Assembly: GCF_000027125.1 (NCBI RefSeq)
Contig: NC_017626.1
Reading direction: 5' to 3' (one strand)
Source: Escherichia coli 042
GTDB lineage: Bacteria > Pseudomonadota > Gammaproteobacteria > Enterobacterales > Enterobacteriaceae
Length of the DNA: 64,000 nt
The notes beneath the pieces are model-generated. The model did no database searches. It worked only from the letters and a program-made list of their open reading frames with translations, and had not been told where the DNA came from. Below are positions 28,311 to 28,625 of this stretch, piece after piece. The number at the start of each line of letters is the position of its first letter. Positions within the stretch are counted from its first letter, which is position 1. Made by a program: the position numbers and the translations under genes.

Positions 28311-28625
28311 TTACTGGAGTAAGAGTATGGACGGGATTGTTTTCCACCCATGCCCTTTCTGGAATCCCGGTGTCGCCGGAACATTCCCTTCACTGGTAGA
28401 GAAATACGAGCGATCTTTCTGTGCCACCATCGACTTACAGATAAATACGGTAGCTGTTCCGTTCTGCAAATCCCGGGCATACGCCGTGTTGGAATAAGGC
28501 ACAACGACCGGGCCTGTGGGCGGAGGAGGAGGGGACCAGCAGGGATCGGGAAATGCGCCAGCAGATTTCCCGTCAGACGCTCTGGAGCAGGCTTCCCGCC
28601 CGTTGATATAAACGTTAGTTTCCAT
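28311..28625 (-). CDS. PAAR-like (DUF4150-like) domain fragment, putative N-terminal part of a T6SS-type effector (tentative)
   Basis: 104 aa ORF METNVYINGREACSRASDGKSAGAFPDPCWSPPPPPTGPVVVPYSNTAYARDL...; the INGR...PDPC...P-Y-x-N pattern matches my recollection of the DUF4150 signature, not a search. Confidence 0.4.
   Translation of the reverse strand: METNVYINGREACSRASDGKSAGAFPDPCWSPPPPPTGPVVVPYSNTAYARDLQNGTATVFICKSMVAQKDRSYFSTSEGNVPATPGFQKGHGWKTIPSILLLQ

Follow-up and report, generated by a model that had tools for sequence, protein, structure and literature searches.

A 104-codon open reading frame (ORF) at positions 28311-28625 of the window (the whole 64,000-nucleotide stretch of the Escherichia coli 042 chromosome that was analysed) is very probably the non-functional stub of a type VI secretion system (T6SS) effector gene, left within a decayed, three-unit effector-immunity array that survives as an orphan immunity island. 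The ORF lies in a variable island between nfrB and cusS, where all three toxin genes (E1, E2 and E3) are dead and all three immunity ORFs (immB, immA and immC, respectively cognate to those toxins) are intact. The island therefore presents what defines an orphan T6SS immunity locus: immunity genes that are intact in a genome lacking any intact effector cognate to them. All of the array genes lie on the minus strand, in the same orientation as cusRS and downstream of it; read from cusS, their order is the E1 remnant, immB, a seven-codon stub (E2), immA, the 104-codon stub (E3), immC, a scrap of a thiolase-like gene, a 45-nucleotide (nt) immunity-gene scrap and the insertion sequence (IS) ISAs1.

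The original prediction reported the ORF and likened its product to the DUF4150 PAAR-like domain. Both observations are correct. The ORF is an ATG-to-TAA frame on the minus strand whose translation matches the one first quoted, and a Pfam scan returned a match to PF13665 (Tox-PAAR-like/DUF4150; i-E 7.2e-11, score 42.6), with no other match and in particular none to the canonical PAAR family (PF05488). The similarity is nevertheless only partial: residues 23-85 of the ORF cover no more than the first ~60% of the domain (model positions 4-63 of 108), and a hidden Markov model (HMM) of our own, built from nine full domains, recognises the ORF with an E value of 3e-46 over positions 1-97 of 129. 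The complete conical domain (~108-130 residues) is absent, and likeness to intact proteins stops at residue 91. Up to that residue the ORF is 62-68% identical to full-length E. coli proteins that combine PF13665 with PF15635 (Tox-GHH2, a nuclease toxin of the HNH/EndoVII fold). The conserved core motif of DUF4150 is P(I/V)P(Y/F) (PMC11883445); residues 38-44 of the stub read GP(V/I)VVPY, as in all of the E. coli and Escherichia whittamii full-length relatives, such that the VPY is kept and the first proline is offset by one residue. In RefSeq, the identical ORF is labelled ‘PAAR-like domain-containing protein’ (WP_001305541.1).

The abrupt end of this similarity is explained by the composition of the ORF, which consists of effector codons 1-91 (28353-28625) and, fused to them in the wrong frame, the terminal 52 nt (28301-28352, the last 17 codons) of a Tox-GHH2 effector gene; the entire E3 remnant thus spans 28301-28625 on the minus strand. 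The junction displays a 2-nt GG overlap, after which the fused frame runs for 13 codons to its own TAA at 28311. The native frame of the toxin tail reads GMGGKQSRPYSYSSKNK-stop, with the stop codon at 28301-28303. (A first guess for that tail, in the frame ...ENNPVHTLTPVKTNENNVRLKT-stop overlapping the ATG of immC, was wrong; the homology to E. whittamii gives the GMGGKQSRPYSYSSKNK reading.)

That homology was found by searching one genome per species with a profile of the immunity paralogs. Among the 67 loci returned, two contigs of E. whittamii Sa2BVA5 (loci L007 and L046 in our numbering) are colinear with the island. The first carries, in order, the 3′ part of a DUF2169 gene, a thiolase-like gene, E1 (528 aa), its immunity gene I1, E2 (532 aa), I2 and then ‘ATGGAAAC’ at the contig edge; the second carries the 3′ 188 codons of a GHH2 effector, I3, immunity-gene scraps, a 414-aa protein, a thioredoxin-domain protein and ISAs1, and continues on to yafV. 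Window positions 31245-29759 (the 3′ end of E1, the I1 counterpart and the first 19 nt of E2) align with L007 2912-4411 at 81% identity, and positions 29758-28618 (the last 30 nt of E2, with the alignment starting 27 nt before the stop codon, followed by the I2 counterpart, a spacer and the next effector start) align with L007 5962-7106 at 84%. Positions 28626-28354 match the first 273 nt of E1 and E2 at 93.8%, and positions 28354-27177 (the last ~50 nt of the effector, and the I3 counterpart) match L046 583-1760 at 95.5%. At the protein level, immB is 81.5% identical to I1, immA 85% identical to I2 and immC 96.7% identical to I3. I1 directly follows the intact E1, and I3 directly follows the 3′ end of a Tox-GHH2 effector.

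The other two toxin genes of the island can be read against the same template. E1 (30880-31245, minus strand) persists as the 3′ ~120 codons of a PAAR-like plus Tox-GHH2 effector gene, identified both by the E. whittamii alignment and by Pfam (PF15635, E 3.7e-6, model positions 31-120 of 122); a 99-aa ORF within it (30897-31196) is annotated in RefSeq as ‘HNH/endonuclease VII fold toxin-2’. Its homology picks up only near residue 405, ~30 residues past the GHH motif (residues 373-375), so that ~404 codons are gone from its 5′ end, and a three-frame translation of what is left contains two frame switches. E2 (29729-29777, minus strand) has been reduced to the first 19 nt (29759-29777) and the last 30 nt (29729-29758) of the effector gene, its native tail reading DSYDDNCDN-stop, compared with DSCDDNCDN in E. 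whittamii. This remnant contains the second METNVYR-stop start (ATGGAAACTAACGTTTATAGATAG) that had already been noticed; it is real and lies at 29754-29777 on the minus strand, 5 nt from the approximate 29759-29782 first assigned to it, with its reading frame ending at 29754. The Tox-GHH2 domain and its GHH motif, present in the intact relatives, are deleted from both stubs.

These alignments bear out the earlier proposal that each mosaic paralog was followed by a degraded effector start, and modify it in several respects. The stubs do stem from effectors with a PAAR-like start, but their ancestors were specialised PAAR-like plus Tox-GHH2 nuclease effectors rather than cargo effectors; the stubs do stand behind the paralogs to which they had been tied, but the functional partner of each is the downstream paralog (effector, then immunity gene); and they are indeed degraded, but by internal deletions, with both stubs keeping the 5′ start and the last 30-52 nt of the gene. 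The array further includes a third dead effector, which survives as a C-terminal remnant with Tox-GHH2 sequence, as well as a third immunity paralog.

The two PAAR-like starts stand at the right-hand end of a ~559-bp repeat (28607-29165 and 29759-30317, both on the minus strand; ~97% identical over 559 columns). Each copy contains the 3′ ~490 bp, or 3′ half, of the upstream paralog (immA in the former, immB in the latter), continues through a 53-nt spacer and stops precisely 19 nt into the PAAR-like gene; in the latter copy, this endpoint coincides with the E2 deletion junction. The paralogs share only ~60% nucleotide identity upstream of the repeat. The shared start of the two copies is not due to chance, and I1 and I2 of E. 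whittamii display the same pattern of a conserved 3′ half.

How the toxin genes were lost is indicated by the junctions themselves. Since there is no microhomology to be seen at the E2 junction and only the 2-nt GG at the E3 junction, there is no repeat-mediated mechanism for the deletions. Each stub retains the extreme 5′ and 3′ ends of one gene, with 0 or 2 nt of microhomology, which is the signature of a simple internal deletion. An alternative history, in which incoming effector-immunity cassettes recombined through the conserved 5′ region of the effector genes and sequentially drove older immunity genes downstream, as proposed for Vibrio cholerae arrays, would make the stubs recombination scars rather than deletions of an intact array. 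The ~559-bp repeat would supply homology arms, as would the first ~330 residues of E. whittamii E1 and E2, which are nearly identical; other taxa repeatedly show arrays of immunity genes alone and scraps of toxin genes, and Salmonella possesses both intact and degraded versions of one unit. Against this, the order of the units is shared with E. whittamii, in which neither E1 nor E2 is disrupted, and the structure of the stubs is that of deletion; we consider sequential displacement highly unlikely.

The age of the E3 deletion can be bracketed by comparison with E. whittamii, to whose E1 and E2 all of the first 91 residues of the ORF are identical. The retained codons (28353-28625) differ from L007 1699-1971 and 4393-4665 by 18-20 synonymous and 0 non-synonymous changes, with a synonymous divergence (dS) of ~0.34. 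On the simplest reading, the deletion would be recent relative to the divergence from E. whittamii; because no non-synonymous change is seen in 91 codons, neutral divergence since truncation is unlikely, by our estimate, to exceed roughly 1.5%.

The same conservation could instead be taken to mean that the ORF encodes a working, stand-alone PAAR-like (‘PIPY’) spike-tip protein, comparable to the DUF4150 proteins of 128-129 residues that precede separate GHH2 genes in many Betaproteobacteria. Such proteins do exist (and are 55-67% identical to the ORF), its start codon and upstream region are kept, and the absence of non-synonymous change over 91 codons would fit. We nevertheless rejected this candidate on the truncation and the out-of-frame tail, and regard it as the most improbable of the explanations considered here. 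The stub is probably non-functional because it lacks the last third of the PAAR-like cone, because its last 13 residues are an out-of-frame toxin tail, because the island carriers have no gene for the DUF2169 chaperone (which DUF4150 proteins require; PMC11883445), and because several independently disrupted variants of it occur. Database variants of the ORF are interrupted by IS1 at codon ~93 or by another insertion, are frameshifted in either of two ways, or have lost a larger segment; in one complete genome, where IS21 sits within immC, neither immB nor immA remains and 173 nt are missing from the start of the stub. The puzzlingly short ‘PAAR-like’ ORF that passes for an ordinary gene in the annotation of ~150 complete E. 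coli genomes would therefore be a pseudogene stub and should be flagged as such.

In contrast to the three dead toxin genes, the immunity genes immB (29831-30871, 346 aa), immA (28679-29719, 346 aa) and immC (27269-28279, 336 aa), all on the minus strand, are complete ORFs with intact immediate upstream sequence, including their ribosome-binding sites. They begin 8, 9 and 21 nt, respectively, after the stop codons of their native toxins. Overall, immA and immB are 74% identical, with almost identical C-terminal 160 residues and divergent N-terminal 185 residues, and immC is 28-29% identical to both. The C-terminal halves of immA and immB have been homogenised (proportions of non-synonymous and synonymous differences, pN and pS, of 0.003 and 0.11), as have those of I1 and I2 of E. 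whittamii. Relative to the E. whittamii orthologues, the ratio of non-synonymous to synonymous divergence (dN/dS) is 0.13 for immB and 0.14 for immA, and on account of these values the immunity genes appear to be under purifying selection. The N-terminal ~185 residues evolve 5-6 times faster at non-synonymous sites (pN) than do the C-terminal ~160, a difference compatible with the N-terminal half carrying specificity for the toxin.

The assignment of these genes as immunity genes draws upon their pairing with toxins elsewhere. Small HMMs representing the paralog family and the PAAR-like and GHH2 domains were run against the six-frame ORFs of the loci returned by the profile search. A GHH2-containing ORF was found to be followed directly by a member of the immunity family in 41 of the 65 loci compared, all from Beta- and Gammaproteobacteria (among them Massilia, Chitiniphilus, Azoarcus, Acidovorax, Variovorax, Kluyvera, Enterobacillus and others). 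The effectors in those loci are either fused PAAR-like and GHH2 proteins (400-600 aa) or are split into a 129-aa PAAR-like gene and a ~410-aa GHH2 gene. Several of the loci harbor 4-6 members of the immunity family in tandem, toxin scraps precede intact members in some loci, and contigs of Salmonella enterica are polymorphic for one effector-immunity unit, which comprises either an intact 531-aa PAAR-like plus GHH2 effector (L075 and L076) or a 126-aa GHH2 remnant (L074). On this basis immA, immB and immC are predicted to be immunity proteins against Tox-GHH2 toxins.

No Pfam or NCBIfam model covers the immA/immB/immC family. An AlphaFold2 model of immA (predicted local distance difference test, pLDDT, of 95; predicted template modelling score, pTM, of 0.93) is all-beta and adopts a beta-propeller fold. 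In a Foldseek comparison to the PDB, this model returned generic WD40/propeller matches only (template modelling score, TM, ~0.55) and no solved immunity protein; in the AFDB it returned uncharacterised bacterial homologues, including B7N9G9 of E. coli UMN026. Sequence searches of the PDB with immA and with a full-length effector returned nothing at E<=1. Neither the 107 profile matches nor the 50 best fold matches in AFDB50 include PA0100 (Tsi7), though this leaves room for a relationship to that protein. The paralogs would thus define an undescribed beta-propeller immunity family for Tox-GHH2 T6SS nucleases. That family is what is new here: the island is otherwise an ordinary case of orphan immunity, and not a new kind of system.

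The connection to type VI secretion, which the original prediction had suspected, is confirmed by the setting of the full-length relatives, which sit in T6SS modules containing vgrG and DUF2169 (L002 and L003, with DUF2169 also in L007). In E. coli A16 (L003), beside tssBC-hcp at aspV/yafV, the genes are, in order, vgrG, DUF6484, DUF2169, a thiolase/beta-ketoacyl-synthase-like gene, a DUF4150 effector gene and an immunity gene; next comes the gene for a 547-aa ‘PAAR-like domain’ protein (PF13665 at residues 23-132, PF15635 at residues 414-513), and after it those for a ‘WD40/YVTN/BNR-like’ protein of 342 aa, a protein of 411 aa and one with a thioredoxin domain. A similar module lies beside yncG in strain 2017-02-2CC (L002).

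The closest described system is Tse7-Tsi7 (PA0099-PA0100) of the Pseudomonas aeruginosa vgrG1b cluster. Tse7 combines DUF4150 with Tox-GHH2 and mediates VgrG1b-dependent killing (PMC4067218); the ancestral effectors of the island share this architecture (N-terminal DUF4150, C-terminal Tox-GHH2, then an immunity gene), and their relatives share the same module context of vgrG, DUF2169, thiolase-like gene and effector (PMC4067218, PMC11883445, PMC9846239). The arrangement also corresponds to the ‘synteny type A’ DUF2169 module, in which the thiolase-like accessory gene stands ahead of the DUF4150 effector gene; formation of the VgrG spike complex by DUF4150 (‘PIPY’) proteins depends upon a DUF2169 chaperone (Sachar et al., PMC11883445). 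In contrast to Tse7 (315-386 aa), the ancestral effectors of the island were longer (~530 aa), and what is left in the island is a stub of 91 of those ~530 codons, with no toxin domain and no vgrG beside the locus. Among enterobacteria, the PefE operon of Proteus mirabilis and TseV of Salmonella bongori likewise represent DUF4150-led effectors with DUF2169 adaptors that are followed by at least one immunity paralog (PMC11883445, PMC9635880); however, the TseV toxins are VRR-Nuc rather than GHH2 nucleases, and the fold of TsiV3 is an alpha/beta sheet rather than a propeller (PMC9635880).

The delivery genes that surround the full-length effectors are missing from the island. No T6SS genes are present in the window, and DUF2169, DUF6484 and vgrG are all absent from it; from the module there is only a 72-residue scrap of the thiolase/beta-ketoacyl-synthase-like accessory gene (26926-27128, minus strand, inside an ORF at 26865-27176). 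This scrap matches the C-terminal 73 positions of NCBIfam NF004798 (E 1.6e-8), is 93.6% identical to L007 1452-1654 (directly upstream of E1 in E. whittamii) and shows 47-51% amino acid identity to residues 260-331 of the A16 gene; it alone was matched in NCBIfam scans that also covered the 104-aa stub, the GHH2 remnant and the three paralogs. The 45-nt immunity-family scrap (26770-26814, minus strand), which abuts the end of ISAs1 at 26769, is 84% identical to L007 3934-3978, inside I1 (tblastn E 0.002).

Across 5,426 complete E. coli genomes, the 4.6-kb core of the island is matched in 160, with 150 covering at least 80% of it and 152 records being at least 99% identical; the carriers come from humans, poultry, cattle, dogs, wild birds and wastewater. 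Together with the dN/dS values, this conservation of the island at >=99% identity in ~150 genomes lends indirect support to the predicted protective role of the immunity proteins. Each island-bearing genome has a single DUF4150 match. Thirteen complete genomes, of which A16 and 2017-02-2CC are the two inspected, contain matches, at 70-72% identity, to the first ~233 nt of the ORF, and DUF2169 together with the thiolase-like gene occurs in only 13 genomes, namely those with intact effectors rather than the island carriers. Neither the E. whittamii-type module nor an intact cognate effector was found in any of the 5,426, and the 5′ half of immA, searched for elsewhere in E. coli, was found in island carriers only. 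The carriers are not necessarily devoid of a T6SS: strain M7424 has a complete one (tssA-M, hcp, tssBC) at aspV/yafV, where ISEc31 interrupts vgrG and the genes next to it are those for a DUF4123 adaptor and a different effector-immunity pair, with ISAs1 copies beyond. At this T6SS locus, A16 and E. whittamii have DUF2169/DUF4150 modules, such that, as judged from one inspected carrier, the carriers appear to hold immunity against a weapon set that their relatives fire from the same machine.

The most probable course of events begins with a tandem array E1-I1-E2-I2-E3-I3 (the intact three-unit form being in part a reconstruction). Each effector comprised ~530 residues: a spike-tip domain of the PAAR-like type (DUF4150, ‘PIPY’) at the N terminus, then a linker, then a Tox-GHH2 nuclease domain at the C terminus. 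Effectors of this kind are loaded onto VgrG by means of a DUF2169 chaperone; each immunity gene encodes a predicted beta-propeller protein of ~340 residues. E1 was destroyed through 5′ truncation and frameshifts, E2 through deletion between nt 19 and the last 30 nt, and E3 through deletion between codon 91 and the last 17 codons, presumably once the cognate VgrG/DUF2169 delivery module was gone. The immunity genes may have continued to be expressed, and may have been kept for the protection that they would give against GHH2 nucleases injected by competitors still carrying such effectors, while the conserved effector 5′ end and immunity 3′ half would promote recombination and gene conversion between units.

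Several considerations weigh against this account. Much of the dN/dS signal of the immunity genes predates the loss of the toxins, and an immunity function is assigned from position, intactness and dN/dS only. The absence of non-synonymous changes in the stub could reflect continuing constraint rather than recent truncation. For E3 of E. whittamii, the available sequence is limited to the 3′ portion, beginning at an ISAs1 end at the contig edge, and both its intact form and the adjacency of the two contigs are partly reconstructed. The picture of the host T6SS comes from a single inspected carrier genome (M7424).

A further possibility concerns the DNA of the stubs rather than their peptides. 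Both of the deletions spare the start of the effector gene and its last 30-52 nt, which contain the Shine-Dalgarno region of the following immunity gene, and the stubs might have been kept in cis as a promoter, a ribosome-binding site or a means of translational coupling for the downstream immunity genes. The orientation of the whole array along and downstream of cusRS would be in keeping with this, as would a weak -35/-10 match that overlaps the seven-codon stub (29776-29747). However, the pattern is seen in just two cases; cusS is followed by a terminator-like hairpin (31457-31440, minus strand); stub variants that are frameshifted or interrupted by IS elements occur; and sigma-70 promoter-like matches in the region are fewer than in shuffled sequences (6 versus 13.8), in a scan that is uninformative. 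Retention in cis is thus a tentative idea, which we think rather unlikely. Also doubtful, though worth stating, is that the array constitutes a recombination-ready cassette system, in which the effector 5′ module and the 3′ half of the immunity gene would serve as homology arms around a variable cassette of GHH2 toxin and immunity N-terminal half. If so, the stubs would keep immunity expressed and would also leave the array able to regain or swap toxin cassettes when foreign DNA arrives, and E. coli lineages associated with extraintestinal pathogenic E. coli (ExPEC), for example those like UMN026, might be protected from attackers armed with GHH2 nucleases in the gut.

Considered as a decayed array with surviving immunity genes, the island invites comparison with the orphan immunity arrays of the Vibrio cholerae auxiliary clusters, the acquired interbacterial defence islands of Bacteroidales and ‘poly-immunity’ clusters. 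As in those systems, intact immunity paralogs are arranged in tandem without a working cognate toxin, with scraps of toxin genes between the paralogs. In V. cholerae, incoming effector-immunity cassettes reportedly push older immunity genes downstream. Orphan arrays left by displacement retain C-terminal remnants, whereas the E2 and E3 scraps of the island keep both ends of the toxin gene; and, unlike T6SS-linked orphan arrays, the island is separated from the T6SS cluster by ~350 kb and sits beside cusS with ISAs1 elements on its flanks. The role presumed for such arrays is protection from non-kin attackers (PMC8189183, PMC7702109). The orphan modules of Rhs and contact-dependent inhibition (CDI) loci in Enterobacteriaceae are likewise displaced arrays of toxin tips and immunity genes with flanking homology that allows recombination; however, they keep the toxin tip and lose the delivery part, whereas two of the three units of the island keep the start of the delivery domain and lose the toxin, and the downstream homology arm of the island lies inside the immunity gene. 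The island offers a clean natural example in which all of the toxins of a three-unit array have been deleted and all of the immunity genes kept, and is useful as such for studying the origin of orphan immunity and for learning which E. coli lineages resist which T6SS attackers.

The surroundings of the array can be described briefly. The window runs from ybcH-nfrA-nfrB through the variable island to cusSR/cusCFBA-pheP-ybdG-nfsB, with the ent/fep genes after them. The sequence of the final ~7 cusS codons (31565-31590) is specific to the island, and E. coli without the island align only from ~31587/31590, at 90-95% identity. ISAs1 homology begins at 26769, at the edge of the array. ISAs1 (the H-repeat) flanks both the aspV/yafV T6SS effector region and the cusS island (in M7424 at 813-849 kb, in A16 and in E. 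whittamii), and the ISAs1 elements of M7424 carry a group II intron. There are hints here of an ISAs1-mediated relocation of the array to its place beside cusS.

Between nfrB and the first ISAs1 lies an AT-rich cluster of ORFs (20237-22583) with predicted products of 178 (apparently hydrophobic), 142, 148 and 80 aa; these genes are hypothetical in RefSeq, and an NCBIfam scan of the 178-aa and 80-aa products gave no match. An intact ISAs1 transposase gene follows at 22561-23697. What appears to be an orphan module of the Rhs type (23776-24727, minus strand) lies between the ISAs1 copies of the same island, 3 kb from the array, and consists of a YD/Rhs-repeat fragment (23776-24045), a 153-aa gene (24063-24524) annotated in RefSeq as encoding a SUKH-3 domain protein, and a 66-aa ORF resembling a toxin tip (24527-24727). 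Finally, one ISAs1 copy is interrupted by IS1 (insA/insB ORFs at 25219-25916), which separates it into halves at 24712-25176 and 25945-26625; the same region is found without that IS1 in 89 other complete genomes.

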